Positions 1 to 21,898 of a DNA stretch of 41,118 bases are shown here, in pieces (positions within the stretch are counted from its first letter, which is position 1; each line of letters begins with the position of its first letter). The notes below the pieces were generated by a model. The model saw only the letters and a program-made list of their open reading frames with translations. It did not search any database and was not told where the DNA came from. The DNA is taken from positions 1 to 41,118 of the forward strand of contig CAZOXG010000002.1 in assembly GCA_964583845.1 (NCBI GenBank), read 5' to 3'. A program made the translations under genes and the position numbers. Source of the stretch: an uncultured Candidatus Saccharibacteria bacterium. Lineage in GTDB: Bacteria; Patescibacteriota; Minisyncoccia; Phycocordibacterales; GWA1-40-21.

Positions 1-60
1 GAAGCGGTTTTGTTTTTCTTATCATTCCTAGCTAGGTATACTAATAGTTAAAAAAGGAAT

Positions 61-97
61 AAAAAAACAGAGGTCGGATAATGATCCTTCCTCTGTT
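61..97 (-). terminator. intrinsic terminator ending the 2302..120 operon
   Basis: 7-bp stem ACAGAGG(67-73)/CCTCTGT(90-96). On the minus strand it is followed by a T-run (61-67), about 25 nt past the stop at 120. Confidence 0.55.
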
Positions 98-119
98 CGC
101 GCTATAGGCTGAGTGGTCC

Positions 120-1247
120 CTAGAAAGGACGGTACTTGAGCCTTATGGCACACGGGAAACCGGGTGGGACGTTCTGTTTAACGCCTGACACCATGAACTG
201 GACATCTGTTGCCCCGGCGGGCATGGACAGATGAGTCTGGTCGTCGCTGTCATAGGTCCGGAACTCCTTCGGATATCCGCCTTCCATTTTGTAGCAGGCG
301 GTGACGATGAAGCCAGACGACGCGGTTGCCCAGTTGAGATAACACAGACCTCTCTTGACTGGATAACCACTCGACCACTTGTCGGTAACTGTTATTACTG
401 TATCTGCAGGCACTGACTGTGACGGGGGCGTAATGACAATGGTGTTGCCAGCGCCAGACCGTCCCCATTCGATAAACTGCATCACAACTATACAGACTAT
501 CAGCAGCATTAGAAATTCCCAGACGTTGGCGCCGGAGGGTTTAACCTTGCCGGTGCGTACAGCTGAGAATATCAGGAAGACAACAACTGCGATTATAACA
601 ATCGCGAGCCAGTGTTCAGTTACCCAATCTTTCGACGTAGTAAGCCAAGCACTGTTTGTGGACGTAGTCACGTCATTCGTAGTTGCGGTGGCTGTCGAAG
701 GGGTTACGACTTGCGTCGGAACTTCCTTACCAACTCCCACCGCCTTGTTTCCGTAGTGATAGGAGGTCCACATCAGAATCGCAATGATTGCGACAATGAT
801 TGCAGACACGAGCCAATCACGCCAGGTTACTGCAACTCGTCCGACTATTGTTGAAAACCGAGGCCCTGTCCATTTCCGGGTGAGCCAGATAATGAGGCCA
901 CCAACGACAACCGACAGACACCAGGTGGTGTACTTCTTGAAGTCAATGGAAGCACTCTTTTTTGGACTCACATTAGGAACTACAGGAACGACTTGCGTCA
1001 TTTCCTGCGGTTCGACGGGAGTGACGGTCACGACTTGCGCCGTTTCCGCTTCCGCTACCTTAATTGTCGGTGTTGGGTTATCTTGACGGTTTACGACCCA
1101 GAAGGCCGTACCCCAAATCAAAACAACTACGAGGATGGTTACCCATCCTTTGACTGGTTTCGCCGTGACGGTGAGGTACCAGTGTTTGCTGGTGGCCCAG
1201 GCGATGAGCCCGAGCACCAGCAGGGAGAGTACCAGAATCGTATTCAT
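120..1247 (-). CDS. polytopic membrane protein, unknown function (three TM-TM-Thr/Val/Pro-linker repeats plus a ~110-aa Cys-containing C-terminal domain)
   Basis: 375-aa ORF with AAGGAG 8 nt before the ATG. It starts 14 nt after the upstream SPFH-like gene, so the two form an operon. Hydrophobic pattern read from the translation. G+C visibly above the backbone. Confidence 0.7.
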   Translation of the reverse strand: MNTILVLSLLVLGLIAWATSKHWYLTVTAKPVKGWVTILVVVLIWGTAFWVVNRQDNPTPTIKVAEAETAQVVTVTPVEPQEMTQVVPVVPNVSPKKSASIDFKKYTTWCLSVVVGGLIIWLTRKWTGPRFSTIVGRVAVTWRDWLVSAIIVAIIAILMWTSYHYGNKAVGVGKEVPTQVVTPSTATATTNDVTTSTNSAWLTTSKDWVTEHWLAIVIIAVVVFLIFSAVRTGKVKPSGANVWEFLMLLIVCIVVMQFIEWGRSGAGNTIVITPPSQSVPADTVITVTDKWSSGYPVKRGLCYLNWATASSGFIVTACYKMEGGYPKEFRTYDSDDQTHLSMPAGATDVQFMVSGVKQNVPPGFPCAIRLKYRPF

Positions 1248-1261
1248 ACTTCACACTCCTT

Positions 1262-2302
1262 TCAATGTGTACTGCCACTATCGGTAACAGTTGGGGGTTT
1301 GGCGCCGATATACAGATTTGTAAGTTGCGGCGTATTCTTGAGTTGCATGCCGAGCATGGCTAGACTAACATCCGTTCCCGGGGGGAGGTTGTCAATCAGG
1401 GCTTTGATTTCGGCCTTGGTGGCGTCGCCACGAGCCGTACCAAGGCGTTGGATCTGAGCGGCTTGAGCAATAGATTCAATTTCCAGAATCTTTGCTGCGT
1501 TGTCAGCTATCTTTCTTTGGCGCTCTAGCTCCTGCGCTTGTTTTGTATCTTCCTGGCCGCTCATGGCAACCTTTTGCAAGGTTTTGACCACATCTTTTTC
1601 AGTGAGATCAACACCCGTTCGTGATAGGGCTATTATTTCAAGTCCTGTTTGTTCTTCAATCTGAGTAGTGAAGGACCCTGCGGGCGCCGGTGGGGGCAAG
1701 GTTACTTTTAGGTATTCGCGGAGAGCTACTGCAATATCGCATTCTGTGCCGTTATACATAACCTTGCCATTGTAGACAAGCATGATGTTGTCTTGCGTAC
1801 CGATGATGCTTGTCATCGCCGCATTGATGATACCTAGGATGACTTTTTTAATTTCATCCTCACCGACAAGAAACATAGCCGTGTAAGCTTGTTTCGTTTC
1901 GGTTGTTAGGTTGAAGTGAAACACAAAGGGGACACCTTTAAGTTCCACTGGCAACGTCTCAAGATTCTCAAACACTTGACGATACTTCATTTTCAGAATC
2001 CTGCCCTTATTGGGAATCAGGCCCATGAAGAAATATCCGGTCGTGTGGGCAAACAGTGCACGAAGCGGTCCGACGGGGGCACCTTTTGGCTGACGATCAC
2101 CATTCTGGTCAAAGTGTTTGTCCTTTAACCCACAGTTAATCTCTAGGAGATTTCCCGCTTTGTTGGTGATCGCAATCACCGTGCCTTCTGGCCGTTCGGT
2201 GAATAGTGCGGGAAGCTTTTTGGGGAGCTTGAAAAGCACCCAGAAAGTTAAGACAAAAAACAGAAACCAGAAACCGATAAATAAGTAAGTAAACATGACC
2301 AT
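1262..2302 (-). CDS. SPFH/band-7-like membrane protein (by-eye call)
   Basis: 346-aa ORF with AAGGAGA 6 nt before the ATG. N-terminal anchor FIGFWFLFFVLTFWVLF, a globular middle, and a C-terminal Ala/Gln/Glu-rich helix QAQELERQRKIADNAAKILEIESIAQAAQIQ as in SPFH tails. Confidence 0.5.
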   Translation of the reverse strand: MVMFTYLFIGFWFLFFVLTFWVLFKLPKKLPALFTERPEGTVIAITNKAGNLLEINCGLKDKHFDQNGDRQPKGAPVGPLRALFAHTTGYFFMGLIPNKGRILKMKYRQVFENLETLPVELKGVPFVFHFNLTTETKQAYTAMFLVGEDEIKKVILGIINAAMTSIIGTQDNIMLVYNGKVMYNGTECDIAVALREYLKVTLPPPAPAGSFTTQIEEQTGLEIIALSRTGVDLTEKDVVKTLQKVAMSGQEDTKQAQELERQRKIADNAAKILEIESIAQAAQIQRLGTARGDATKAEIKALIDNLPPGTDVSLAMLGMQLKNTPQLTNLYIGAKPPTVTDSGSTH

Positions 2303-2436: not shown

Positions 2437-2506
2437 GGTAGAAGTGGGGAAGTTGGAATAGCTGGATTGGTGGGGAAATAGGGCTAGTATTAAGGTGCGT
2501 TTAGGG

Positions 2507-2537
2507 TTGACTTTATAATCAAAATAAAGAATAATCT
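2507..2537 (+). promoter_or_regulatory. possible promoter of tRNA-Leu(UAG)
   Basis: TTGACT at 2507-2512 and an AT-rich -10 candidate (ATAATC/TAATCT) about 18-19 nt downstream. The tRNA starts at 2546. Confidence 0.4.
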
Positions 2538-2545
2538 ATGTTAAT

Positions 2546-2626
2546 GCGCGGGTGGTGAAATGGCAGACACGCTAGCCTTAGGAGCTAGTGCCGCAAGGCA
2601 TGGAGGTTCAAGTCCTCTCCCGCGCA
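2546..2626 (+). tRNA. tRNA-Leu (anticodon UAG), type II with long variable arm, no encoded CCA
   Basis: Cloverleaf folded by hand: acceptor GCGCGGG/CCCGCGC, anticodon stem CTAGC/GCTAG, loop CTTAGGA, variable stem GCC/GGC, T arm GGAGG-TTCAAGT-CCTCT. Confidence 0.93.
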
Positions 2627-2659
2627 CAAACAAACTGACTAAAAGTCAGTTTTTTGTTG
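2627..2659. terminator. bidirectional terminator hairpin between the tRNA and mini-element copy A
   Basis: CAAACAAACTGAC-TAAAA-GTCAGTTTTTTGTTG: a GC-poor stem flanked by A-run and T-run. Confidence 0.6.
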
Positions 2660-2832
2660 CGCGGGAAGCAACCTCTGGGAGAGGTTGCGTGAGGACTTGA
2701 AAGGCGGAGCAAATTTTTGATAGTAGTCAAAAATGCGAGCCGGGGTCGAGAAATTTTACGAGCGACGGCGAGTAAAATATTCGTGACCAAGTCCTCTCCT
2801 TAAAGTCGAGGGAAAGACTCCTCTCCCGCGCA
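2659..2832 (-). mobile_element. gene-3'-end-associated mini-element, copy A (type-1 core), behind tRNA-Leu(UAG)
   Basis: Minus-strand core is GTCACGAATATTTTAC-TCGCCGTCGCTC-GTAAAATTTCTCGACCCCGGCTCG-hairpin-CTCCGCCTTTCAAGTCCTC. Inverted tRNA 3'-end pieces at 2659-2665 and 2691-2701. Direct copies at 2788-2799 and 2818-2832. Confidence 0.8.
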
Positions 2833-2862
2833 TAAGTGAGGACAAGACTGTTAATAATTATT

Positions 2863-2892
2863 TTGCAAAAATACATTGGAAAATGGTATAAT
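2863..2892 (+). promoter_or_regulatory. promoter of the DUF3592-like gene
   Basis: TTGCAA (2863-2868), 18-nt spacer, TATAAT (2887-2892). Confidence 0.55.
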
Positions 2893-2945
2893 TTACTGAT
2901 AGCTGATTGCTTTTGCAACCCCAAATATACAAAAATCATAATATT

Positions 2946-3635
2946 ATGAAAAATAAAATTACTAGTTTGGTTGGCGCCATTTTCTTTTTTCTTGGTATCG
3001 GCATACTTATAGGGGGGATTTTCGAATACAAGAGCAACCAGCAATTCCTTCAATCGTCCCAAAAAAGTACTGGAATTGTTACAGATTTAATTCTTGGTGA
3101 TTCTGTTTACTACCCAGTGCTACAATTCCGTACACTTGCAAATAAGACAATTGATTTTAAATCATCAGTAGGTAGCAATCCTCCCTCGTATCGAGTAGGA
3201 GATACTGTGGAAATTTATTACAATCCGACGGATCCATATTCAGCAAAAATATCTGATTTCTGGTCGAATTGGTTTGGAGTTATAATCACTGGTTTTCTTG
3301 GCACTATATTCACGTTTTTGGGTGGAATATTTCTAGGCAGTATGATCAGATCTAGTATGAAGAAAAAATGGTTGTTACAATATGGAAAAAGGATTTCTTC
3401 CGAATTTCAAAAAGTAGAAATAAATGAAAGTTTCTCTGCTAACGGAATTCATCCTTACATTATCGTAAGTCAGTGGCAAGACCCAGAAACCAGAACAATT
3501 CATATCTTTAAAAGTGAAAATATTATGTATAATCCAGAAAAATATATTACTAATAAAAGTATAGATGTGTTAGTAGATCCCATGAATTGTAAAAAATATT
3601 ATACGGACATTAGTTTCTTGCCAAAGTCAGAGTGA
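2946..3635 (+). CDS. DUF3592-like membrane protein (by-eye call)
   Basis: ORF 2907..3635. The ATG at 2946 gives MKNKITSLVG plus a TM. GDTVEIYYNPTDP and a second TM fit the DUF3592 layout. Backbone-like low G+C. Confidence 0.55.
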   Translation: MKNKITSLVGAIFFFLGIGILIGGIFEYKSNQQFLQSSQKSTGIVTDLILGDSVYYPVLQFRTLANKTIDFKSSVGSNPPSYRVGDTVEIYYNPTDPYSAKISDFWSNWFGVIITGFLGTIFTFLGGIFLGSMIRSSMKKKWLLQYGKRISSEFQKVEINESFSANGIHPYIIVSQWQDPETRTIHIFKSENIMYNPEKYITNKSIDVLVDPMNCKKYYTDISFLPKSE

Positions 3636-3660
3636 AATTATTAATGTACTAAATATCTTC

Positions 3661-3727
3661 TTCCTCTGGTTCGCTGCAGCGACCTCAGTCGAAACTCAGT
3701 ATCGAATTATGGCGCAAAGTGGTGCAC
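3661..3727 (+). repeat. decayed older mini-element remnant (C0)
   Basis: 3702-3727 TCGAATTATGG-CGCAAAG-TGGTGCAC parallels the right arm of copy C1 (TTCGAATCCTAC-TCGCAAG..-TGGGTGCAC). Followed by an old hairpin at 3744-3769 and a tRNA-Lys 3' remnant at 3779-3788. Confidence 0.3.
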
Positions 3728-3778
3728 TATGTGGGCAACAACTTTTGTCTTTTGTGTGCTCAAGACAAAGATTCTATA

Positions 3779-3976
3779 AGTAGGAATTTCTTCCTCGACT
3801 AAAACTTCGTCGTCGGGCCACAAAGGCCACTTCCATTTTCTAACACGGAGTACCGTGAAGAAAATCAGGTCGCTCGGTTTTGTCTGGGCACGCTCTCGCA
3901 TGACTTTCTACTGAAAGTCATTGGCTCCGAGCTTCGAATCCTACTCGCAAGTGATAACATCACTTGCTTGGGTGCA
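3779..3976 (+). mobile_element. mini-element copy C1 (type-2 core variant), behind tRNA-Lys
   Basis: Left arm AGTAGGAATT. The core shares GGTCGCTCGGTTT..TGGGCACGC.TC-hairpin-CTCCGAGCT with copy G2. Right arm is TTCGAATCCTAC, then a 24-nt inserted hairpin, then TGGGTGCA, which is the tRNA-Lys 3' half in inverted orientation. Confidence 0.65.
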
Positions 3977-4014
3977 CAATTAAAAAAACTGCTACGCGCA
4001 GTTTTTTTTAATTG
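3977..4014. terminator. bidirectional terminator shared by copy C1 and tRNA-Lys
   Basis: CAATTAAAAAAACTGC-TACG-CGCAGTTTTTTTTAATTG palindrome. Confidence 0.65.
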
Positions 4015-4087
4015 TGCACCCAGTAGGATTCGAACCTACGACCTTGTCCTTAAGAGGGACCTGCTCTACCAACTGAGCTATGGATGC
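4015..4087 (-). tRNA. tRNA-Lys (anticodon CUU), no encoded CCA
   Basis: Minus-strand cloverleaf: acceptor GCATCCA/TGGGTGC, anticodon loop CTCTTAA, T arm with TTCGAAT loop. Confidence 0.9.
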
Positions 4088-4145
4088 ATTTTTACCTAAT
4101 AAAAGTAACAGTTATTTTAAGAAAAATCAAGTAATTTTGCTTTCA

Positions 4146-4174
4146 TTGACATTTATTGATTTGTAAGGTAATTT
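4146..4174 (+). promoter_or_regulatory. candidate promoter of the 4307 gene
   Basis: TTGACA (4146-4151), 17-nt spacer, TAATTT. The leader contains hairpin TAGCAGAC/GTCTGCTA (about 4206-4243). Confidence 0.45.
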
Positions 4175-4306
4175 AAAAACCAGTTCTTTATATATTATTT
4201 CGCTTTAGCAGACAGTATCTTTATTATATGATTTTGTCTGCTACAGCGAAAAACCCGATGTGGGCTAAGCTGAGCAGTATGTAAACTGCTAAGTAGGAGA
4301 AAGACA

Positions 4307-5014
4307 ATGAAACACTCATCGGCAATCCAAATGCTCAGGTTGTCTGAGCTGATCGCAAAGGGGTCAGAACATGCTTTAGAGAGGATTCTTCGGAATCCTG
4401 GAGTCTTTAAAGACCTTCTTGAGGCGGCTGAAATGAGAGAGGGAGATAATCGCTTTCATGGTCAGTCTCGCTGGGAAATTCGCAAGGCCCTTGGTCTTAG
4501 CAAATATCCAGCACCCGAAGTCTTTCAGATCTCTGTTGATGTTAACCCGTCGGTTAGTATTGAAGATTTGATTGGACTTGGAAAGTATCAGTATGTAAGT
4601 GCTGCTATGCAAGAGTCCATCAAGAACAATTTATTTGCCCGGGCCGAAAAGTCTGGAAAGGTTAAGATTTCTATCCTTCACTTTGATAGGGATATCATTT
4701 CCTACAATTCTGGTCACGAAATGTTGGAGGAGGTTGATCCAACTACGATTGAGAAAGAGATGCAAATAATCAATTGCATTCCTTTTAGTCCGAAGTATCG
4801 TCCGTTAAATATTGACGAACTTTTGGCGGTCGGGAGTCAGAAACCCGAGATCCAAAAGAAGTTCCCTTTGGTTGCCTATGGTTTGTTCTCTGGTCAGGCA
4901 AATGTTGCCTTGGACGACAGCGGACCACGACCTGAGCACCGCCGGTTGGTCGAATACAACTTCGACTGTAATGCCTTCTATGACTTCTACCGCATCCTTG
5001 CGGTGGAGACATAA
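4307..5014 (+). CDS. hypothetical protein (higher-GC ORFan)
   Basis: 235-aa ORF with GGAGAAAG 5-6 nt before the ATG. No motif recognised. Weak hairpin plus T-run at 5016-5067. Confidence 0.7.
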   Translation: MKHSSAIQMLRLSELIAKGSEHALERILRNPGVFKDLLEAAEMREGDNRFHGQSRWEIRKALGLSKYPAPEVFQISVDVNPSVSIEDLIGLGKYQYVSAAMQESIKNNLFARAEKSGKVKISILHFDRDIISYNSGHEMLEEVDPTTIEKEMQIINCIPFSPKYRPLNIDELLAVGSQKPEIQKKFPLVAYGLFSGQANVALDDSGPRPEHRRLVEYNFDCNAFYDFYRILAVET

Positions 5015-5121
5015 TCACACATGTTTCTACAACCCGTGCATCTGAATAAGGTGTGTGGGATTTTTTTATGTAAGAATATAATATTAAACATAATGGGGAT
5101 TTGGTGACAAATATTTTCCAA

Positions 5122-5379
5122 GTGCCCAGGATGGGACTCGGTCAGGAATAATTTTCTTATCGACACAAGAAAATTTTCACGACCATTACATGGTCAGTAC
5201 ACCATTTTGGATATTTTATTTCGTTACACTCATAAAATATCTCACAAGGTCTTTCGGTTGGGTCCCTTACCCAATCCTCAACCTGCCTCGCGGCTGGGCA
5301 TTGCTATACCCAGACCCTCTGCCTAAGAAAAATCGGCAAAGGGTACGCTCCGCTTTTCGAGTTCCACCCTATCGGGCAC
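5122..5379 (+). mobile_element. mini-element copy D1 (composite/nested), outer copy behind tRNA-Leu(UAA)
   Basis: Left arm GTGCCCAGGATGGGACTCG matches the tRNA gene strand at 17/19. Then GTCAGGAATAATTTTCTT-ATCGACAC-AAGAAAATTTTCACGACC. A nested second core-like unit lies at about 5192-5245. Right arm is TTCGAGTTCCACCC-TAT-CGGGCAC. Confidence 0.7.
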
Positions 5380-5395
5380 ATACAAAAAAACAGCT

Positions 5396-5480
5396 TGGTG
5401 GACTCGGTCACAGGTTTTTGCTTGCTAGCAAAACCCGCGACCCCGACTCGGCCCGTCGGCCTCCGTCTTTCGAGTCCCAC
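5396..5480 (+). mobile_element. mini-element copy D2 (short type-1 core), inner copy behind tRNA-Leu(UAA)
   Basis: TGGTGGACTCG|GTCACAGGTTTTTGCTTGCTAGCAAAACCCGCGACCCCGACTCGGCCCGTCGGCCTCCGTCTT|TCGAGTCCCAC. Confidence 0.75.
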
Positions 5481-5481
5481 G

Positions 5482-5520
5482 ACCAAAACAAAAACGGCCA
5501 TAAGCCGTTTTTGTTTTGGT
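5482..5520. terminator. bidirectional terminator, overlaps the CCA end of tRNA-Leu(UAA)
   Basis: ACCAAAACAAAAACGGC-CATAA-GCCGTTTTTGTTTTGGT perfect palindrome. Confidence 0.7.
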
Positions 5521-5602
5521 GCCCGGGGTGGGACTCGAACCCGCACGGTGTTACCACCGAAAGATTTTAAGTCTTTTGCGTCTACCATTCCGCCACCCGG
5601 GC
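5517..5602 (-). tRNA. tRNA-Leu (anticodon UAA), type II, CCA encoded
   Basis: Acceptor GCCCGGG/CCCGGGC, anticodon stem AAAGA/TCTTT, loop CTTAAAA, T loop TTCGAGT, 3' ACCA. Confidence 0.92.
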
Positions 5603-5618
5603 GAATATATTTTTGGCC

Positions 5619-5743
5619 TTGAGGCCTGTGCAGAATGGTCAGGAATATTTTGTTCGCCGGCGCTCACAAAATTTCACGACCCTGGCTCGGCCCGGCTGAT
5701 TGCTATCAGCCGACTTCGTGGCCTCTGCCTTTCGATTCTGCCC
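5619..5743 (+). mobile_element. mini-element copy B (type-1 core), behind tRNA-Cys
   Basis: Left arm TTGAGGCCTGTGCAGAATG versus tRNA gene strand TTGAGGCCTAGGGCAGAATCG. Core is GTCAGGAATATTTTGT-TCGCCGGCGCTC-ACAAAATTTCACGACCCTGGCTCGGCC-CGGCTGAT/ATCAGCCG-..GGCCTCTGCCTT. Right arm TTCGATTCTGCCC. Confidence 0.8.
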
Positions 5744-5767
5744 GAAAAAACACTTTCGTGTTTTTTC
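5744..5767. terminator. bidirectional terminator between copy B and tRNA-Cys
   Basis: GAAAAAACAC-TTTC-GTGTTTTTTC. Confidence 0.65.
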
Positions 5768-5770
5768 TTG

Positions 5771-5842
5771 AGGCCTAGGGCAGAATCGAACTGCCGTATA
5801 GAGATTTTGCAGATCTCTGCCTTACCACTTGGCTACTAGGCC
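5771..5842 (-). tRNA. tRNA-Cys (anticodon GCA), discriminator U, no CCA
   Basis: Acceptor GGCCTAG/CTAGGCC, anticodon loop CTGCAAA, T arm GGCAG-TTCGATT-CTGCC. Confidence 0.92.
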
Positions 5843-5974
5843 GATATGTTATTTTACCAACACAAACAAATATCGCAATCCCTTACTGTCTTTATGACCT
5901 TTACCTGGGCAAAGGTCAGTCTTCCTTATACACTATACATATACTTTATACTATCAGGGGGAACGCTTACTATT

Positions 5975-6316
5975 CTAATTTTTATTTATCAAATCGTCAA
6001 TTTTTTGTCGGTTTTTTTCACCGCTGTCTATTTCAAAATCAAACAGTGGTGGACGTCCGATGCGAATATTGTCTATAAAATACTTATAGAATTCACTGCG
6101 ATGACGCTTGGCAAAATTCAAGGCTCCGATTTCTTTGTCTGTTGGTAAAACGGAAAAAAGAATTTTTGCATGTTTGCCGTCTTTTGATAATTTAACATCA
6201 GTTACAGTGATAAGTGAAGTTTGATTGGATTCGCGCTGTAAATATTCAGCCGCTTTCTCGCGAATAGCTTGAATTAGTTTAATATCTCTTTTGCTTTCAT
6301 TTTCTTGTATTATCAT
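5975..6316 (-). CDS. rbfA: ribosome-binding factor A
   Basis: 113 aa. ITVTDVKLSKDGKHAKILFSV matches the RbfA KH-like core. Sits directly downstream of infB, the conserved order. Confidence 0.85.
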   Translation of the reverse strand: MIIQENESKRDIKLIQAIREKAAEYLQRESNQTSLITVTDVKLSKDGKHAKILFSVLPTDKEIGALNFAKRHRSEFYKYFIDNIRIGRPPLFDFEIDSGEKNRQKIDDLINKN

Positions 6317-6317
6317 T

Positions 6318-7823
6318 TTATTTTTCTATTAGTCTGACGGAAATAATTTTGTCACCCGGTGCTACTTCTATATTGGCTTGTAACATACAACCGAATTCCA
6401 CACCGCCACGAACTTCATTGGTCTTAACTTTTTGTTGCTGAAGCTCCTTTATTTTGCCAGCACCAATTTTTACATCCTGACGCATTATTTTTACATCATC
6501 TCCAACATTTAGTAAACCTTCCTCAGCTCGTCCGCCTAAAACATATTTGTCTTTAACACTACTGAAAACTTTAAGTATTTTTGCTCGGCCAGCTTCTTCT
6601 TCAACTTGTATCTTTGGGGTAATGGCCAAAGCTTTTTCTGCCAACCACTCAGTCAGTTTGTAAATAATATCAAAAGTTTTAATTTCTACACCGTCTCGTT
6701 CCGCCAAGTGTTTGGCTTGGGTATCTATTTTTGTATCAAATCCCACCAAGAGTGTGCCAACCTTGCTAGCCGTCAGTTTTACATCGCCTTCAGTGATATC
6801 ACCAATGGTAGCTGAAATAATGTGTATTTTAACTCGGTCGTTTTTAATTTTGGCCATCTCATGAGCGATACCTTCAAGAGCTCCAACATTTTGAGCTTTG
6901 ATCACTACTTGAAGCAGTGCTTGATTCTCTAGTAATTCATCGGTTACCATACAGTTGTTGCTCACTCGTGTCTCTTTGAATGAAGTGGTAAATTCCTCAG
7001 CTTCTTTTTTTGTACTAACGGTTGTAAACGGTGTTCCAACTTTAGGTTGTATGTTAAAACCAATAACACGAACTGGAGAAGAAAAAGTGACATCAGTAAT
7101 TTTTTTACCTTTAAAATCTTCCATCATTCTGGTGGTGGCCCAGGCGTCACCGCAAACAACAAAGTCACCGCTGTGAATTGAACCGTCTTTAATTATAAGT
7201 GTCGCGGAGATACCTTTTTTACTATCCAAGGTGGCTTCGATGACCGCACCTTCAGCTACCCGTTCAGGATGGCCTTTAAGTTCCTCCATCTCAGCTACTA
7301 AAAGTAATAGGTTGAGTAGATCATCTACACCTTTACCAGTTTTGGCAGAAATTGGGACATAAGAAATATCACCACCCATACCTTCAAGGTAAATACCATT
7401 TTCTACTAAACTCATTTTTGTTCTCTCAATATCGGCACCAGGTTTGTCTATTTTGTTGATAGCTACAATGTAGGGAAGTTTACTAGCGACAATACAGTGC
7501 AAAGCTTCTAGTGTTTGTTTTTTAACACCGTCATCAGCTGAGACTACTAAAATGGCAATGTCGGCAACTTCAACTCCACGTGAGCGAATAGCTCCAAACG
7601 CCTCGTGCCCAGGGGTATCCAAGAAAGTAATTTTCTTTTCTTCACCGGCCAAATTTTGACGAACTACTTCATACGCCGAAATCTTCTGGGTAATACCACC
7701 AGCTTCAGAATCAACGATATTGGTCTTGCGAATATAGTCTAGTAGAGTGGATTTACCATGGTCAATGTGACCCATAATACAAACTACCGGCGGTCGCTCT
7801 TGTGTTATTTCTTCTTTAGTCAT
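6318..7823 (-). CDS. infB: translation initiation factor IF-2 (short form starting at the G domain)
   Basis: 501 aa. G motifs [17 protein letters not shown] and NKID, followed by the beta-barrel and C-terminal domains. Confidence 0.92.
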
Positions 7824-10317: not shown

Positions 10318-11190
10318 ATGGAAAATCTAAATAAACAGCAGTTAATTCTTCTTACTCTGTTAATTACTTTCGTTACTTCAATCGCGACTGGTATCGTGAC
10401 GGTTTCTCTTATGGATCAGGCTCCTAAAAATGTTACTCAAACCATAAACAGAGTCGTTGAACGTACGATTGAAAAAGTTGTGCCGACTAAAGTGGATGGC
10501 AATCAAACTCAACAAACTACTATAAAAGAAACCGTGGTTGTTAAAGAGGATGATAAGGTGACTAGTACTATCGCTGAAAACAGTGGCGCTGTTTTAAGAG
10601 TCTATCGTTTTGTTCCAAACATTGTTGAACAATATTTTATGTGTTTAGGTGTAGTGGTGTCGGCCGACGGTTTAATAGCCGTACCCATTACCGCCGATGT
10701 TGGAAATGGTGATGAAAAGTTTTTGGTCATGTCTAGTAAGGGTGACATAATGAGTACAAAGAAATTGCCGATTGCTCCAAATGCCAGATTCTTCTTCTTA
10801 CGAGTTGATACAGGTGATAAAACCAAAACAGTAAATATTCCGACCGCTAAATTATCAAACAAAGATTTGTCACTCGGACAAACTGTGGTTTCAATCAGTG
10901 GGGAGAAAAGAGATATTATTAGTACCGGTATTGCGGCGAGTTTTATACCTCAGCTTCAAAAAGTTGCTGTGGCCTCAACTACGGCTTCCACTACAGACAT
11001 AGTTGATAAACAATTTAATTTTATTGAAACCGGCATGAGTAATATTTTGTCTGGTGCACCACTTCTTGATTTATACAGTAATTTAATGGGGATGAAAGTT
11101 TCGGGTGAAAATATGTTTGCACCCTCAGGTTTAATTACTTATGAAATGCAGGTTGCCTTGAGTAAAGAAAAAGCCACTGCTAGTAATTAA
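10318..11190 (+). CDS. membrane-anchored hypothetical protein (weak trypsin/HtrA-like C-terminal resemblance)
   Basis: 290 aa with an N-terminal TM. ILSGAPLLDLYSNLMGM is reminiscent of the GNSGGPL..G.L.G segment of S1C proteases, but no clear catalytic His was seen. Confidence 0.45.
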   Translation: MENLNKQQLILLTLLITFVTSIATGIVTVSLMDQAPKNVTQTINRVVERTIEKVVPTKVDGNQTQQTTIKETVVVKEDDKVTSTIAENSGAVLRVYRFVPNIVEQYFMCLGVVVSADGLIAVPITADVGNGDEKFLVMSSKGDIMSTKKLPIAPNARFFFLRVDTGDKTKTVNIPTAKLSNKDLSLGQTVVSISGEKRDIISTGIAASFIPQLQKVAVASTTASTTDIVDKQFNFIETGMSNILSGAPLLDLYSNLMGMKVSGENMFAPSGLITYEMQVALSKEKATASN

Positions 11191-11254: not shown

Positions 11255-13915
11255 ATGCCTCCAATCAACAATTTCACCACCAAAGCTAAAGATGCCATTC
11301 GTCGGGCTCACGAGTTGGCGATTGAGCGTGGTCAGAATCATGTAAACCCGGTTCATTTATTGGCGGCTTTGGTATTTCAAGATGACAGTATCGTTGGTTC
11401 TATTTTAGACAAGATGGAAGTTGATTCTGTTTTGTTGGCCGATTCTTTGGCTGATTCTATTGAAGGCGAAGGCCCAACAAATACAGTCTCTCCATCAGTT
11501 CAAATGTATCTAACACCTGACTTGGCACAAGCTTTGGATGAAGCTGGTAAACAAGCTACTAAAATAAAAGATGAATTTATTTCAACAGAACACTTACTCC
11601 TAGCTTTGATAGAAGTGCCTTCACCAGCCAAGGATCTTTTGGCTCGATTTAAAATTGATAATGAATCAGTGTTGAAAGTTTTAATTGATTTACGAACCAG
11701 CAAGAATTCTGAGGCAATTATTAGTAGAAAACCAAAAATATTAATTAAGTATACTCGCAGTTTAACCAAAATGGCCAAGGAAAACAAACTTGACCCAGTT
11801 ATTGGTCGTGATGAGGAAATTTCTCGTATTATTCAAATTCTCTCTCGTCGTACAAAAAACAATCCTATTTTAATAGGAGAGGCTGGTGTTGGTAAAACCG
11901 CAATTGCTGAAGGTCTGGCTATCCGCATGGCCCAAGGTGATGTACCAGAATCTTTGAAAGATAAAGAATTAATGTCACTGGATTTGGGCATGCTTGTTGC
12001 AGGTACAAAGTATCGCGGTGAATTCGAAGAGCGTTTAAAGAATATTATTAAGGAGGTAGAACGAGCTGAGGGTAAGATTATATTATTTATTGATGAGTTG
12101 CATACAATCGTGGGGGCTGGAGCTTCTGAGGGCTCGCTAGACGCTTCAAACATGTTAAAACCAGCTTTGTCTCGGGGCGAACTGCGGGTTATTGGTGCCA
12201 CTACCTTGCGAGAGTATCAAAAACATATCGAGAAAGATCCGGCTTTGACTCGTCGTTTCCAACCGGTCTATGTAAATGAACCATCCATAGAAGATGCGGT
12301 AGCAATTTTACGTGGCTTAAAAGAAAAATACGAGCTTTACCATGGAGTGCGAATAACCGATGACTCTATTTTGGCAGCGGTCAATCTTTCCAGCCGATAT
12401 ATTTCAGATCGTTTTTTGCCGGACAAAGCTGTGGACTTGATTGATGAAGCTTCATCAGCTTTGAAAATATCATTGGAAAATATGCCACCAATCTTGGAAG
12501 AGACCCGTCGAAAAGTGATGCGTTTGGAAATTGAAAAAGAAGCTTTGAAAAAGGAGGCCGAGGGTGATGATGGAAAAAACGCCAAATCACGGACTAAAAT
12601 TATTGAAAAAGAAATTGCCGACTTGAAGGAAAAAACTTCAGAGACTGAATTGAAGTGGAAAAACGAAAAAGAAACTATTGCAATTATTAAAGCCAAGAAA
12701 AAGGATTTAGAAGTTTTACGATTGGAAGCCGAAGATGCTGAAAGTAAATCTGATTTAACTAAAGCGGCGGAGATTCGTTATGGTAAAATTCCTGGGACTG
12801 AAAAAGAATTGGAAACCGCTAGTAAGCGTTTGAAACGTTTGCAGTCCTCTCGACAAATTTTGAAAGAAGAAATCACTGAAGCTGATATTGCCGCGGTGGT
12901 TTCTCGTTGGACCGGTGTTCCAGTAGCACGGATGCTGGAAGAAGAAGCCGAAAAACTTTGCCGTATGGAAGAAGAGCTCAAGAAACGTGTAGTTGGACAG
13001 GAAGAAGCCGTCAAGAAAATTTCAGATACTATTAAACGATCCCGAGCGGGAATTGCTGATCCTAACAAACCGATTGGTTCGTTCATTTTCCTTGGACCAA
13101 CTGGGGTTGGTAAAACGGAGTTGACCAAAGCACTAGCCGAATTTATGTTTGATTCTGATAAAGCCTTGATCCGTTTGGATATGTCTGAATATATGGAAAA
13201 ACATTCCGTTTCTAAGTTGGTAGGTGCTCCTCCTGGTTACGTTGGTCACGATGAAGCCACTAGTTTTAGTGAGACTGTTCGTCATCGCCCTTACTCTGTT
13301 ATTTTGTTTGATGAAGTAGAAAAAGCTCACCCAGAAGTTTTTAATATGTTGTTGCAAATTTTAGATAATGGTCGCTTAACTGATTCCAAGGGGCGAGTGG
13401 TTAATTTCCGTAATACCGTTATTATTTTGACCTCTAATATTGGTTCTCAACATATTGATAAGATGGAGAGACTTGGATTTAACGCCGACGCTGGGGCTGT
13501 TGGTGACTACAAAGACGCCAAGGCTAAAGTGATGGGTAGTCTCAAAGATTATTTCCGTCCGGAATTTATTAATCGTTTAGATGATATTATTATATTCGAT
13601 ATTTTGAGTCCAGAAGTGATTCGTCAAATCGTTGATATTCAAATTGATATTGTGAAAAAACGTTTGGAAGCTAAAGATATTAGATTGGAAATTTCGAAGG
13701 AGGCCTCAAATCTTTTGGCTAAGGAAGGTTATAATCCACAGTATGGTGCCCGACCTTTGAAACGTTTAATTCAAGAAAAGATTTTAAATCCGGTGGCGCA
13801 TTTTATGATTACTAAGGGAGTACTATCAGGAGGTACTGTCCTGGTGGATGTAAAGAATGGTGCGATTATTGTAGATGCTAAAAAGCGTAAAGGGAAGTTT
13901 GATGAGGTAAAATAA
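11255..13915 (+). CDS. clpB: AAA+ disaggregase ClpB
   Basis: 886 aa. Clp N domain, two Walker A motifs ([16 protein letters not shown]), and a long coiled-coil middle domain. Confidence 0.95.
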
Positions 13916-13940
13916 TCTAGTTGCAGAATTAAAAATGGTA

Positions 13941-13976
13941 AAAAAAACGCAGGCACACCGGGTGCCTGCTTTTTTG
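13941..13976. terminator. bidirectional terminator (clpB / 109-aa gene)
   Basis: A-run, GCAGGCAC-ACCGG-GTGCCTGC, T-run. Confidence 0.8.
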
Positions 13977-14306
13977 TTAGACCTCGACATACCCGGTGAG
14001 AATTTTACTTCTCTTGACCTGTATGGCTTGGACTGATCGGCATAACACCTTTGCTAACTCTTGGTCAGACGGACGATCCGGGGAAGTAATCGTGGTGATT
14101 TCTCCCGGCATCCAAAACTGACCTTTGTTTGTGCTATGTGTTGTCCTAGTGGAGTAGTATGTTTTCTTTAACTCCACCTGTTTTGTAGGGTTCTTTTTCC
14201 TCCATTCTTTATTGGCACAGGTAATACAGACATGGTGACCAGTTGCTTTGCTCTTGTGCCCGTTTTTTTCGCGACCACAAATTGAGCAAATCGCTTTGAC
14301 TTTCAT
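13977..14306 (-). CDS. small zinc-ribbon protein with basic, possibly DNA-binding C-terminus (higher-GC ORFan)
   Basis: 109 aa. CSIC...CITC pairs. C-terminal SDQELAKVLCRSVQAIQVKRSKI is helix-turn-helix-like. Own promoter at 14349-14377. Confidence 0.6.
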   Translation of the reverse strand: MKVKAICSICGREKNGHKSKATGHHVCITCANKEWRKKNPTKQVELKKTYYSTRTTHSTNKGQFWMPGEITTITSPDRPSDQELAKVLCRSVQAIQVKRSKILTGYVEV

Positions 14307-14901: not shown

Positions 14902-15005
14902 ACGGAACTCCTTTGCTTTTGTTTACACTGTAAGGCAGTGTTGACCTCTTACGGACTACATACACAGCCGAGTTCTGTCGTACAAGACAGAAGATATCTA
15001 ATCGA

Positions 15006-15034
15006 AGAATACTTTAGGTTATCGACTGTGTCAA
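15006..15034 (-). promoter_or_regulatory. sigma70-type promoter of the 152-aa gene
   Basis: Minus strand TTGACA (15029-15034), 17-nt spacer, TATTCT (15006-15011). Confidence 0.55.
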
Positions 15035-15082
15035 GAATAGAAAAAATACATTTGTAATTTAGACTTTTTGCATATTTTGCTT

Positions 15083-15199
15083 GGAAAGGATTTGGTCATG
15101 GATAATTCACTAGTCGTCTCTCGTGAATTTCCACGACCCTGACTCGGCCACACTACCTGCTGGCAGTGGCTTCGCGGCCTCCGTCTTTCAAATCCTTCC
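15083..15199 (+). mobile_element. mini-element copy E (type-1 core), behind tRNA-Tyr
   Basis: GGAAAGGATTTG|GTCATGGATAATTCAC-TAGTCGTCTCTC-GTGAATTTCCACGACCCTGACTCGGCC-hairpin-GCGGCCTCCGTCTT|TCAAATCCTTCC. Confidence 0.8.
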
Positions 15200-15205
15200 T
15201 TGAGC

Positions 15206-15275
15206 AAAATTGGTTTCTTAACCAATTTTACAAAAGAAAAACACCAGTTTAATAATAAACCGGTGTTTTCTTTTG
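15206..15275. terminator. two consecutive AT-rich hairpins between copy E and tRNA-Tyr
   Basis: AAAATTGGT-TTCTTA-ACCAATTTT, then GAAAAACACC..GGTGTTTTC flanked by A-run and T-run. Confidence 0.55.
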
Positions 15276-15359
15276 TGCGCAGGGAAGGATTTGAACCTTC
15301 GTAGTCCATTGGACGATTGATTTACAGTCAATTGCGATTGACCACTCCGCCACCTGCGC
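15276..15359 (-). tRNA. tRNA-Tyr (anticodon GUA), type II, no CCA
   Basis: Acceptor GCGCAGG/CCTGCGC, anticodon loop CTGTAAA, long variable arm, T arm GAAGG-TTCAAAT-CCTTC. Confidence 0.92.
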
Positions 15360-15482: not shown

Positions 15483-15866
15483 ATGATGAGAACTTACCTT
15501 GTAGCGAGGTTTCCCGTTATTAACCTCATTCTCTGGTCACTGGAAGCGGTTAAATTACTGAATCTGGTCAAAGATCCAAAGGCTTGTGTGGACGCTCGTT
15601 ACGAGGTGTATGAGTCAGTTGTTTTCTTTGCCAATTCGGTTGAAAAGAAACTGATCGAGGGACATACTCTCAACGAATCATTTGACCTTTCAGAGCGCCT
15701 GTTGGAAACAGCTATTAGAGGGGAAATTCCTCATCGCTGCAAAATGCCTCTGGTGGTTGAGATATTGAGCCGTCACTCAACAAGAGCTCACGAACTCAAG
15801 TCCTGGTACGACACTCGTTGTCTTGCAAAAGAACAAGACATAACTCAACATGAGTTCGTCGGGTAA
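15483..15866 (+). CDS. hypothetical protein (higher-GC ORFan)
   Basis: ORF 15459..15866. The ATG at 15483 lies about 5 nt after GGAAAGGAAG. No motif recognised. Confidence 0.65.
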   Translation: MMRTYLVARFPVINLILWSLEAVKLLNLVKDPKACVDARYEVYESVVFFANSVEKKLIEGHTLNESFDLSERLLETAIRGEIPHRCKMPLVVEILSRHSTRAHELKSWYDTRCLAKEQDITQHEFVG

Positions 15867-15895
15867 ACCAAAAGATTGAGACCAAATATTGGTCG

Positions 15896-19297: not shown

Positions 19298-19338
19298 AAG
19301 ATTCATAATACCCGTCGTCACAGCTGAAGCATGTAAAC

Positions 19339-19462
19339 ATCAGATTCGGTCACGACTTTTTCTTTCGCCGTCGCTCAAGAAAAGTCTCGACCCTAGCTCA
19401 GCATTACTCGCTGGAGCTCGTAATAAGCTTGCGCTTTTCGAATCTGAGTGGGCCCGCATATT
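19339..19462 (+). mobile_element. mini-element copy F (type-1 core), behind tRNA-Trp
   Basis: CATCAGATTCG|GTCACGACTTTTTCTT-TCGCCGTCGCTC-AAGAAAAGTCTCGACCCTAGCTCAG-hairpin-CTTGCGCTTT|TCGAATCTGAGTGGGCCCGCATATT. The 26-nt right arm is a perfect inverted copy of the tRNA 3' half. Confidence 0.85.
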
Positions 19463-19489
19463 AAAAAAACTGCTTATTAGTAGTTTTTT
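19463..19489. terminator. AT-only hairpin at the centre of the 26-nt inverted repeat
   Basis: AAAAAACT/AGTTTTTT stem. The flanking arms extend the palindrome to 19437-19515. Confidence 0.6.
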
Positions 19490-19495
19490 AATATG

Positions 19496-19567
19496 CGGGC
19501 CCACTCAGATTCGAACTGAGAACCTCGCGTTTGGAGTGCGATGTTTTACCATTGAAACTATGGACCC
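19496..19567 (-). tRNA. tRNA-Trp (anticodon CCA), no encoded CCA end
   Basis: Acceptor GGGTCCA/TGGGCCC, anticodon stem TCGCA/CGCGA (imperfect), loop CTCCAAA, T arm CTCAG-TTCGAAT-CTGAG. Confidence 0.9.
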
Positions 19568-21858: not shown

Positions 21859-21898
21859 CAAAAGAAAAACACTGGAATATTCCAGTGTTTTTCTTTTG
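21859..21898. terminator. bidirectional terminator between copy G2 and tRNA-Leu(CAA)
   Basis: CAAAAGAAAAACACTGG-AATATT-CCAGTGTTTTTCTTTTG perfect palindrome. Confidence 0.75.

Follow-up and report, generated by a model that had tools for sequence, protein, structure and literature searches.

What is the structured, non-coding sequence that lies behind one tRNA gene after another in the 41,118-nt window (by which we mean the whole stretch of DNA analysed), and why does each copy carry pieces of the gene that it adjoins? The initial annotation, made from the letters alone, offered two readings: a modular, retargetable insertion element, or a structured RNA. On balance we lean towards a family of non-autonomous, non-coding mini-elements, each bringing a replacement 3′ end and usually a two-way terminator, and moved in trans by a putative recombinase.

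Ten copies of one element

A covariance model made from 83 copies (five from the window and 78 from other genomes) was run without filters over the whole window. It recovered exactly ten copies, A to J (Table 1), which are those already listed at the same positions, and no copy beyond them. All are read, as had been proposed, on the strand opposite that of the neighbouring gene. Compared with shuffled controls, a strict core pattern matched three times in the window and not once in 100 shuffles.

ARAGORN and Rfam place seven tRNA genes in the window, each with at least one convergent copy behind it. Copies C and D, and copies H and I, form tandem pairs, and copy J lies behind topA, a gene called by Pfam. 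The claim that the copies follow gene 3′ ends therefore holds for all seven tRNA genes and for topA, but elsewhere there are minor classes of site at the tRNA acceptor end, in the D-loop and on the 5′ side. Similarly, the proposed core order, GGTCAC(G/A), hairpin 1, CGACCCYGGCTCGG, hairpin 2 and CTCCGYCTT, is kept in A, D, E, F, G, H and J, but not in B and I, which have a second core type, nor in C, which is a hybrid. The loop TCGCCGTCGCTC, or a one-nucleotide variant of it, is shared by five copies as claimed (A, E, G, I and J), and the pieces of copy A that had been placed at 2607–2626, 2659–2665, 2691–2701, 2788–2799 and 2818–2832 are exact in the sequence. In eight of nine copies the 3′ arm matches its own tRNA over 10–20 nt, against 5–8 nt for the other tRNAs of the window, which bears out the statement that the arms match each neighbouring gene.

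Table 1. Coordinates and parts of the ten copies and of their target genes. Model match: positions and score in the covariance-model search.
Feature	Positions	Strand	Parts and remarks	Model match
tRNA-Leu(UAG), target of A	2546–2626	+	ARAGORN, Rfam
Copy A, two-way terminator	2627–2658	.	palindromic, between tRNA and element; from sequence
Copy A, inner arm x′	2659–2700	−	inverted copy of tRNA 3′ end: acceptor 2659–2665, T-loop/T-stem 2691–2700; P4 hairpin 2666–2690 between
Copy A, type-1 core	2701–2788	−	pattern, model; order GGTCACG, P2 hairpin (loop TCGCCGTCGCTC), CTCGACCCCGGCTCG, P3 hairpin, CTCCGCCTT	2689–2798 (−), 108 bits
Copy A, outer arm	2788–2832	−	2788–2799 displaced tRNA 3′-end copy, abuts core; 2800–2817 remnant of type-2 core 5′ end; 2818–2832 second, older tRNA-end copy
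Copy B, type-2 core with insertion in loop	3779–4013	+	outer arm 3779–3788; core 3789–3932; inner arm 3933–3944 and 3970–3978, P4 3945–3969 between; terminator 3979–4013	3871–3945, 13.6 bits (E 0.013)
tRNA-Lys, target of B	4014–4087	−
Copy C, distal in tandem pair behind tRNA-Leu(UAA)	5122–5379	+	outer arm 5122–5140; type-1 5′ half, then type-3-like module; inner arm 5356–5379	5130–5232, 41 bits
Copy D	5396–5516	+	outer arm 5396–5406; short type-1 core 5406–5469; inner arm 5470–5485; terminator 5486–5516	5396–5481, 77 bits
tRNA-Leu(UAA), target of D	5517–5602	−
Copy E	5621–5767	+	strict pattern, model; outer arm 5621–5637; core 5637–5731; inner arm 5732–5743; terminator 5744–5767	5628–5743, 78 bits
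tRNA-Cys, target of E	5770–5842	−
Copy F	15083–15274	+	strict pattern, model; outer arm 15083–15094; core 15094–15187; inner arm 15188–15199; P4-like hairpin 15200–15231; terminator 15232–15274	15084–15199, 92 bits
tRNA-Tyr, target of F	15275–15359	−
Copy G	19338–19494	+	outer arm 19338–19348; core 19348–19436; inner arm 19437–19457, exact copy of tRNA-Trp 3′ end; terminator 19458–19494	19338–19449, 79 bits
tRNA-Trp, target of G	19495–19567	−
Copy H, distal in tandem pair	21599–21728	+	outer arm 21599–21616; core 21616–21709; inner arm 21710–21728	21606–21721, 85 bits
Copy I, type-2 core	21737–21897	+	outer arm 21737–21754; core 21755–21838; inner arm 21839–21859; terminator 21860–21897	21744–21851, 33.5 bits
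tRNA-Leu(CAA), target of I	21898–21981	−
Putative original topA terminator	30370–30406		looks like a terminator; next to outer arm of J
Copy J, outer arm	30412–30496	−	displaced original topA 3′ end (KTIPDRCSDKNCPNHNPHKLAEVADTK*)
Copy J	30497–30623	+	type-1 core 30497–30585; short inner arm 30586–30593; terminator 30595–30623	30487–30597, 61 bits
topA 3′ end in use	30629–30697	−	imported copy (KTIPDRCSDKNCPNHNPHKLTN*)

The 3′ end of the target is present twice

In 42 copies we find a direct repeat that is exact over 16 nt or more. Almost without exception its inner end falls 19 nt inside the called tRNA (a few lie at 18 nt, and genes that encode CCA give 21 nt), and its outer end varies from the end of the tRNA to 19 nt past it; the outer arm is the tRNA end repeated outward from the boundary between T-loop nucleotides 55 and 56. 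The exact repeats at tRNA genes are 16 to 38 nt long, and that at topA is about 60 nt long and diverged. The junctions read ..TCG|GTCAC and ..CTT|TCGA, and target sites outside the T-loop have only a loose G|NNCC context in common. The inverted inner arm, x′, always adjoins the core and reaches about 2 nt beyond the junction. Elements that integrate into tRNA genes leave a partial direct repeat of the 3′ end on their far side and an intact gene on the near side, and this is what we find in the 42 exact repeats and in the two ends of topA. The anatomy of the units, their exact junction and the two copies of the target end, one displaced and one a replacement, can be read directly from the DNA. 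It is important to note that this changes the meaning of the arms: their match to the target stands, but they are not simple guides, as the far direct copy is what used to be the 3′ end of the target, now displaced. In its place a copy that arrived with the element completes the gene, most clearly at topA.

At topA, copy J splits a duplicated 3′ end, of which the working copy is imported and the original displaced beyond the core. The two tails encode the same 17 residues by different codons (CGC TGT TCT in the working and AGA TGT AGT in the displaced tail), most synonymous sites within the first eight codons differ, and the topA tail of the element-free L130 is of the displaced type. The copy at topA is present in the window and L128, and absent from L130 and L132. 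Homology begins exactly at the core boundary, which argues for a site-specific cut and against a random homologous crossover.

On the reading that we favour, the elements would be cassette-like satellites rather than genes. Read on the strand of the element, each unit consists of a folded core, forming a three-way DNA junction with hairpins P2 and P3; the short inner arm x′, an inverted target end running some 2 nt past the crossover and often accompanied by an extra hairpin, P4; usually a two-way terminator; and a second 3′ end for the target gene, as its replacement. Such a unit would join the chromosome at one precise point, mostly in the T-loop of a tRNA or tmRNA gene, between nucleotides 55 and 56. 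The element's 3′-end copy would then complete the gene and its terminator would serve it, and the original 3′ end, pushed beyond the core, would pair with x′ as a third helix, P1. A free form, probably circular or single-stranded, would have its replacement end abutting the core, with P1 acting as a duplex mimic of the target site, and a recombinase encoded elsewhere may recognise the junction or the loop TCGCCGTCGCTC and exchange strands at the foot of P1. The displaced copy would later decay, while conversion across the palindrome that x′, the terminator and the tRNA end form would keep x′ the same as that end.

Some observations count against this model. Young copies have direct repeats that stay perfect into the trailer, with an x′ that is imperfect, for which the model needs a close donor or a duplication of the target. 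Several copies are orthologous across species with 66–84% MiaA identity, and would thus be long-lived for selfish DNA. The negative results given below weigh on the same side: neither the window nor the surroundings of 120 loci yielded a recurrent candidate recombinase, no free form or empty allele was seen, and the copies show no recent bursts. The model also does not account for the re-pairing of cores with new targets. Finally, the layouts L082, L086 and L018 do not fit the simple scheme.

Guided insertion and the search for an enzyme

A second explanation, which we regard as rather unlikely, is that x′ is a true guide, made of single-stranded DNA or RNA, which fixes the two cleavage sites by pairing with the target strand, while the core serves as scaffold for a HUH or other enzyme that acts in trans. 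The need for one guide to fit both the target and the 3′ end of the element itself would then give rise to the direct repeat, in an extension of the short guide-to-cleavage-site pairing of IS200/IS605 or of the target loop of the IS110 bridge RNA. The match of each copy's arms to its own target is what a guide would give, as are the constant placing of x′ against the core, an invariant bulged T in P2, and the looseness of the sequence shared by targets outside the T-loop. Near-identical cores with different arms in L113, and similar cores at different tRNAs in different genomes, also suit it. It is on such similar cores that the term retargetable depends: the ORF-less, multi-copy family with its constant core and gene-matched arms has held up, but the retargeting of cores to new targets is only indirectly supported. 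A core scaffold with x′ as guide might amount to a base-pairing-programmed DNA insertion system of Patescibacteria, in which an enzyme acting in trans reads a folded single strand, a cassette enters any site that fits the guide, and the target gene is repaired by the copy carried; we give this only a minor share of our belief.

Several results tell against a guide. The window contains no Y1/HUH or DEDD gene and, in agreement with the initial annotation, no recombinase: none of the 40 ORFs scanned matches such a family, and 17 of the 40 are without any Pfam match. All-against-all clustering of 1750 ORFs around 120 loci, most of them clustered rather than annotated, gave neither a recurrent neighbouring gene nor a candidate recombinase for the elements; of recombinase families only a large serine recombinase recurs, in five loci and next to some of the same tRNAs, and it is in neither the window nor its relatives. 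The strand of the element shows no bias against GC skew (39 versus 45 loci), by which we also reject a lagging-strand bias. Furthermore, no sequence is conserved at the right end of the unit, the repeat far exceeds any known pairing between a guide and its cleavage site, and the symmetry of G:T and A:C pairs reported below opposes an RNA guide scaffold.

The same survey found an HTH protein family in nine loci, likewise absent from the window and its relatives, and the CCA-adding enzyme and YraN, whose presence near elements is mere synteny with certain tRNAs. Units of 100–250 bp hold no ORF and no tyrosine or serine integrase of their own. An autonomous, ORF-carrying relative was sought among orphan 5′ halves and far direct repeats, which proved to be only sequence variants, and the only 2.7-kb interior found consists of two IS3 copies that part one copy from its tRNA.

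Core helices show a DNA-type pattern of conservation

An alignment of 139 copies from 100 loci gives a core folded as a three-way junction, and covariation in it is strong. Standard pairs make up 91% of the paired positions against 66% in shuffled alignments; the covariation score is 0.60, against 0.16 when shuffled and at most 0.13 with slid partners; and 21 of 23 pairs show double changes. Together with the fixed orientation to the tRNA and a terminator in the element's own direction, this could suggest that each tRNA gene has a structured non-coding RNA gene as its partner, convergent to it and mimicking its acceptor/T minihelix or acting as an antisense to its 3′ end. The role of such an RNA would lie in the processing, charging or decay of tRNA, or it would serve as a decoy. 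Even long-diverged relatives keep copies at their orthologous tRNA-Trp and tRNA-Leu sites, and in old copies the inner arm remains identical to the tRNA end.

We nevertheless consider an RNA gene improbable. Structured RNA tolerates G:U far more than A:C, and the core helices do not: 94% of their pairs are Watson–Crick, with 18 G:T against 29 A:C in 2417 cells, whereas the control stems of tRNAs at the same loci have 131 G:T against 11 A:C in 2628 cells (Fisher p = 2e-13). The structured RNA that had been offered as the other reading is thus disfavoured, and the element behaves as inserted DNA rather than as a one-strand RNA. Folded as single-stranded DNA, both strands are alike and both do better than shuffles, with z from −3 to −6 in most copies (for the core of copy A, −5.1 on the − strand and −6.0 on the other). 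There is no conserved promoter, and upstream neighbours follow no pattern, being variously co-oriented, divergent or terminated. In old copies the outer arm has decayed, so the minihelix has not been kept up. An RNA gene is also at odds with the existence of copies that are truncated, nested or in tandem, with a layout common to three or more cores that look unrelated, and with the occurrence of the same core behind topA, where it splits a duplicated coding end.

Database searches gave no family for the core, which the initial annotation likewise could not place in one: it has no match in Rfam 15 or in annotated phage or plasmid collections. At gathering scores, Rfam 15 returned only tRNA and tmRNA in the window and 18 loci, and at E≤10 on positions 2500–6000 only the tRNAs and spurious miRNA-type matches on palindromes. 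A phage origin was rejected, the lone IMG/VR match being a chance one inside an ORF and blastn finding none in phage or plasmid collections. By inspection the core has no hammerhead, HDV, twister or hatchet motif, and the G:U test opposes an RNA, so we also reject a self-cleaving ribozyme or tRNA-like core. Class C group II introns target terminators, have domains I–VI with a catalytic hairpin in domain V and a 5′ GUGYG, and measure at least about 400 nt; we reject them, since the core is only 65–110 nt long and there is no Rfam group II match.

Bare and occupied sites among relatives

The strict pattern occurs in at least 120 species-representative genomes, nearly all of Patescibacteria among the matches listed, and among these the labels of the metagenome-assembled genomes name several phyla. 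About 80% of copies are convergent to the 3′ end of a tRNA or tmRNA gene. Across the loci, 105 of 161 tRNA/tmRNA genes carry an element, and many of the rest have just a plain terminator behind them, free of arm copies; such bare tRNAs coexist with occupied ones in the same genomes. Tandem arrays and nested copies exist, and the conservation of base pairs is of a DNA type. Four syntenic relatives have from one to three or more units at tRNA-Leu(CAA) and differ in core type at tRNA-Tyr. Polymorphism in presence and copy number, which had been named beforehand as a test, is therefore seen at bare and occupied tRNAs, at topA and at tRNA-Leu(CAA). No free form was seen, and a search of metagenomes for the empty allele of a young insertion yielded a single contig, which was filled.

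These data bear on a further explanation, that the units are non-mobile, vertically inherited tRNA trailers that grew by local inverted and direct duplication at terminators, their core being spread by gene conversion. The orthologous copies in relatives agree with this, as do the age and divergence of copies within a genome: core identity is 0.49 within genomes and 0.47 between them, so there is no sign of recent bursts, which we reject. The evidence for conversion between x′ and the tRNA end, which is the precise loss of P4 in the lineage of the window, can be added on the same side. We hold such a trailer to be very improbable, given the bare tRNAs of the same genomes, the variation of unit number and core type at one locus among close relatives, the labels from several phyla, a junction fixed to the nucleotide, and the same core behind topA with an imported gene end.

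A retroelement primed by the tRNA 3′ end, with the outer arm as primer-binding site as in LTR elements, is scarcely credible: the outer arm is complementary to the last 18–21 nt of the tRNA, up to the T-loop, and in 4 of 39 cases with a CCA-less gene a CCA stands in the distal copy, but the complement of a post-transcriptional CCA is missing from the other 35 of 39 arms, the repeats run into trailers, the topA site has no tRNA, and there is no reverse transcriptase in the window or among the recurrent gene families at the 120 loci (whose ORFs were mostly clustered, not annotated).

Relation to known mobile elements

The mini-element that we favour is closest to the phages, ICEs and islands of tRNA genes and to CIMEs, which are integrase-less, cis-mobilisable derivatives of integrative elements in which a remnant lies between att sites and is mobilised by the integrase of the parent element. 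Integration sublocations in tRNA genes were reportedly treated by Williams in 2002, and the ICESt3/CIME work is said to concern Streptococcus thermophilus. Like our elements, all of these target tRNA and tmRNA genes with a T-loop junction, supply a replacement 3′ end so that the gene stays intact, leave the original end beyond the element, as a partial direct repeat, show identity blocks with a fixed inner and a variable outer boundary, accrete in tandem at one site, and can use the 3′ ends of protein genes. The elements differ in being gene-less and only about 100–250 bp long, in their conserved folded three-way junction at the crossover, in the extra inverted copy of the target end inside them, and in occupying, in some cases, nearly every tRNA gene of a genome; moreover, about 160 copies include no cognate integrase or full-length parent.

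Integron cassettes with their attC sites, and folded attP sites of the CTX-phage type, are also small, promoter-less units moved in trans, with a site that is conserved in structure and not in sequence, near-pure Watson–Crick pairing, a conserved bulged base, and a folded strand that mimics a duplex site. We reject attC itself: the junctions are ..TCG|GTCAC and ..CTT|TCGA, the R and L boxes (RYYYAAC/GTTRRRY) and the platform of integrase and attI are lacking, with no integrase in the window, many different gene ends are used instead of one site, and a three-way junction is the rule.

The ends of IS200/IS605, PATEs and REP/REPIN-RAYT elements are, like ours, ORF-less, strand-oriented hairpins at gene ends and terminators, and the IS200/IS605 enzyme recognises a bulged T in a hairpin while its cleavage site is read by base pairing. 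However, these have targets of 4–5 nt without a target repeat, whereas here 18–70 nt of target are present twice; our check for PATEs and REPINs found this repetition of the target, no Y1 HUH gene in the 41 kb, no recurrent transposase family in the 120 loci, and no bias of strand with respect to replication or GC skew. The IS110 bridge (seek) RNA shares with the elements a constant scaffold and target-matching segments. We reject it on the ground that it belongs to an insertion sequence encoding a DEDD recombinase, whereas the elements have no adjacent ORF of any kind and the window no DEDD Pfam family; its helices should tolerate G:U, which those of the elements do not show, and its target match is about 14 nt with only a 2-nt core duplicated. 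MITEs are likewise short, non-coding, multi-copy, intergenic and able to fold back, but the terminal repeats of the elements differ from copy to copy and match the target, there is no target duplication of fixed length (16 to 38 nt, and about 60 nt at topA) and no known parent insertion sequence, and we reject a MITE as well. A full-text search of the literature found no description of elements of this kind.

Patescibacteria have tiny genomes and had been regarded as poor in mobile elements. If the mini-element reading is true, most tRNA genes of many Patescibacteria would be colonised by the smallest integrative units known, cassettes of about 150 bp that combine a spare gene end with a terminator and a folded site of recombination. 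It would also point to a recombinase that accepts many different targets, of interest as a tool. A guide would instead mean a new kind of guided recombination to set alongside bridge RNAs, TnpB/IscB and CASTs, and an RNA gene a widespread new class of RNA standing one-to-one with tRNA genes. As mini-elements, the units would serve as a marker for gene flow between candidate-phyla bacteria, and would explain the breaks in public assemblies at tRNA loci in these organisms.

Ten copies of one element in the window

The window is a piece of a Minisyncoccia/Paceibacterota (Patescibacteria) chromosome with housekeeping genes for IF-2, ClpB, MiaA, ParB, RelA/SpoT, TopA, DprA, SerRS and Dus, and by ARAGORN and Rfam its only known RNAs are seven tRNA genes. 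The initial annotation had listed ten copies of a non-coding element behind gene 3' ends; a covariance model built from 83 copies (78 from other genomes) and run over the window without filters recovers exactly these and no extra one, with scores of 13.6 to 108 bits. All ten (copies A to J) lie on the strand opposite to the neighbouring gene. The coordinates of copy A, behind tRNA-Leu(UAG), the order of the motifs, and the hairpin stems that differ between copies yet remain complementary all agree with the sequence, as does the shared hairpin loop TCGCCGTCGCTC. The arms were also said to fit the neighbouring gene, and they do match their own tRNA better than any other in the window.

All but one of the seven tRNA genes lie on the minus strand, and the plus-strand cumulative GC skew climbs steadily; if the skew marks the leading strand, most of these genes are head-on to replication. 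The element itself has no replication-strand bias. G+C is 0.44-0.50 in window positions 1-2000 and 28000-30000, against about 0.38 elsewhere.

Anatomy of the unit

Read on the element strand, the unit runs from an outer arm, X1 (the reverse complement of the target's 3' end), through the core to an inner arm, x' (a same-sense copy of the target end from T54 onward), then usually a palindromic two-way terminator, and last X2, the real 3' end of the target gene. The type-1 core is a three-way junction: X1 and x' pair as P1, P2 has a GGTC/GACC closing block, an invariant bulged T and a loop of 12 or 4-6 nt, and P3 is closed by GRC/GYC. An extra hairpin, P4, commonly with a GCAG loop, often interrupts x' at the T-stem/acceptor boundary. 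Across 139 copies, 91% of pairing cells pair, against 66% in shuffles, and covariation scores 0.60 (0.16 when shuffled, no more than 0.13 with slid partners); one covarying pair, for example, is A-U in 75 and G-C in 46.

A second core type, in copies B and I, has a like architecture with different junction sequences, and a third is present in copy C and, in relatives, behind tRNA-Tyr. This third family reads ..CTTACAG..CAGTACCCCCGATGG, a hairpin, CTCATCGGGGC and then the tRNA-end copy. Behind tRNA genes its position, arms, P4 hairpin and terminator are as in the other types; it is also nested in type-1 cores after CGACC (copy C, and the topA copy of the syntenic relative L128).

Constraint acts on DNA

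Real RNAs tolerate G:U and not A:C. The control stems (acceptor and T stems of 219 tRNAs from the same loci) hold 131 G:U and 11 A:C in 2628 cells, whereas P2 and P3 of the element, 94% Watson-Crick, hold 18 G:T and 29 A:C in 2417 cells (Fisher p = 2e-13 for the mispair contrast). Either strand, folded as single-stranded DNA, forms the same junction, and no conserved promoter lies upstream of the element, its neighbours being co-oriented, divergent or terminator-separated with no pattern. Thus, we conclude that the helices are under constraint as DNA, both strands equally, and not as one transcript.

Signs of insertion and of a replaced gene end

In 42 copies the 16-38 nt just 5' of GGTCAC repeat the same-strand tRNA gene end exactly and in direct orientation. 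The inner end of this repeat falls between T-loop nucleotides 55 and 56 (..GAATCG/GTCAC versus ..GAATCG/AACC), almost always 19 nt into the ARAGORN call, or 18 nt in a few copies and 21 nt with an encoded CCA; its outer end is variable, with the mode at the tRNA end and a maximum 19 nt into the trailer, including half the terminator. The same genomes contain many bare tRNA genes, followed by a plain terminator and without copies of the arms. Among the syntenic relatives of the window (MiaA identity 84%, 79% and 66%) the tRNA-Trp copy is common to all, tRNA-Leu(CAA) has one to three or more units, the extras truncated, and the core behind tRNA-Tyr is type 1 alone, type 3, both together or a hybrid; two genomes, the window and L128, have the topA copy, and L130 and L132 lack it. 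Tandem and nested copies are common.

A minority of loci have other layouts, at the acceptor end, D-loop or 5' side. In L082 (1718-1970) a core and hairpin sit within a partial second tRNA-Ser copy (nt 1-40, D-loop split), 29 nt from the intact gene, and in L086 (6455-6680) and L018 (about 6200-6400) copies 5' of tRNA-Asn have arms from its 5' end. Relative to miaA, tRNA-Trp together with its element forms one block that is flipped between L130 (11642-11895) and the window (19338-19567). In L037 (1189-3900) two insertion sequences, apparently IS3-family from their ORF translations (OrfA/OrfB, rve-type DDE core), separate a type-1 core from tRNA-Ser, now 2.7 kb apart.

Copy J is the most informative: the working topA end, ..KTIPDRCSDKNCPNHNPHKLTN and stop, is followed by the terminator and the core; directly past the core comes a second topA coding end, ..KTIPDRCSDKNCPNHNPHKLAEVADTK and stop, with a seemingly original terminator. 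The two differ at most synonymous sites over the first eight codons (including AGA/CGC and AGT/TCT), the relative L130, which lacks the element, has the codons of the displaced copy, and the homology starts exactly at the core boundary. Together these observations argue that a diverged copy of the target's 3' end came in with the element, joined at one defined point and not anywhere inside the homologous stretch. By the same logic, tRNA genes would stay intact because the element supplies a replacement 3' end, which would also account for the four tRNA cases with CCA in the distal but not the working copy. CCA-less tRNA genes (48 loci) mostly have 'CA' right after the discriminator base, e.g. 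ACAAAA or ACACAA.

Proposed mechanism and its rivals

In a free form, the carried 3' end would adjoin the core, P1 would be a duplex mimic of the target to about 2 nt beyond the crossover, and a recombinase whose gene lies elsewhere would work at the base of P1, with the conserved loop and bulged T as its likely contact points. Once the element is in place, the displaced copy would decay while x' stayed identical to the tRNA end. The outer arm of copy G (tRNA-Trp) has no acceptor part, and those of copies H and I (tRNA-Leu(CAA)) have mismatches. Young copies, with perfect repeats and an imperfect x', do not readily fit this scheme. P4 has been precisely lost from copies G (19437-19457) and I (21839-21859) relative to their orthologues in L128, L130 and L132, leaving an inner arm that is now an exact tRNA 3' end copy, which suggests gene conversion across the palindrome in the window lineage.

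The nearest functional counterparts are integrative elements with tRNA 3' ends as targets, together with their integrase-less derivatives (cis-mobilisable elements, CIMEs), and the folded site is reminiscent of integron attC and single-strand attP sites. On balance we lean, by a little, towards a gene-end-replacing integrative element shrunk to a folded site and a spare gene end. We consider it improbable that the inner arm works as a true, programmable guide; if it did, the element would represent a new class of system. The element failed the defining tests for an Rfam family, a MITE, an attC site, a bridge RNA and a group II intron.

Enzyme, cargo and mobility

No recombinase family matched among the 40 window ORFs scanned, and clustering of 1750 neighbouring ORFs gave no enzyme candidate; the recurrence of the CCA-adding enzyme and YraN reflects synteny only. 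Outside the window, a large serine recombinase adjoins some of the same tRNAs. These genes lie immediately next to tRNA 3' ends that bear mini-elements as well, in convergent orientation; the L008 gene has its stop codon 28 nt from a type-1 core. No far direct repeats turned up within the 8-kb loci. An unplaced family of 190-270 aa HTH-type ORFs, found in 9 of about 120 element loci but not in the window or its syntenic relatives, matches HTH_23 weakly, contains the LAGLIDADG-like motif LGLGLYIGEG and has no PDB or NCBIfam match.

Our data hold no cargo-bearing relative of the element, and the one contig that turned up when two metagenome scans looked for an empty allele was filled. Divergence among the copies of one genome equals that between genomes, and core type tracks tRNA type weakly; thus movement is old or rare.

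Positions of genes and third-type cores in the window and in element loci (L numbers)
Feature	Locus	Position	Remark
Large serine recombinase	L008	4580-6253	Resolvase + Recombinase + Zn_ribbon_recom
Large serine recombinase	L082	221-1774	as L008
Large serine recombinase	L086	4769-6409	as L008
Large serine recombinase	L066	5924-7435	as L008
HTH-type ORF	L063	1620-2429, 6970-7653	
HTH-type ORF	L021	2792-3454	
HTH-type ORF	L085	6157-6819	
HTH-type ORF	L109	2199-2861	
HTH-type ORF	L008, L022, L051, L058, L075		
Third core family	L128	about 15000-15215	
Third core family	L130	about 15705-15890	
Third core family	L132	about 13600-14000	
Third core family	window	5187-5355	
Third core family	L091, L073, L100		
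Sizeable ORFs	window	120-2302, 4307-5014, 10318-11190, 28957-29850, 32918-33580, 36006-36839, 38201-39274	no Pfam match

Distribution

A strict type-1 core pattern has at least 120 matches in a one-genome-per-species collection. Among the matches listed, nearly all are Patescibacteria (labelled Saccharibacteria, Paceibacterota, Kaiser-, Nomura-, Zambryski-, Morani-, Wolfe- or Yonathbacteria), with a few MAGs labelled Elusimicrobia or Bdellovibrionales. In 100 of the 8-kb loci the covariance model finds 139 copies; a convergent tRNA or tmRNA gene lies within 350 nt of 101 of the 125 testable copies, and 105 of 161 testable tRNA/tmRNA genes are occupied. Nothing comparable was found in Rfam 15 or in phage and plasmid records, a single IMG/VR match was judged to be chance, and a full-text literature search found no description of such an element.

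Public short-read assemblies of the window species (L001-L006, e.g. GCA_037138255.1 JBAXIT010000015.1) consist of 2-5 kb contigs. At least two of these (L001 and L002) stop about 100 nt past an element copy, and a copy is present in all six loci; the elements therefore probably limit assembly of this species' genomes.
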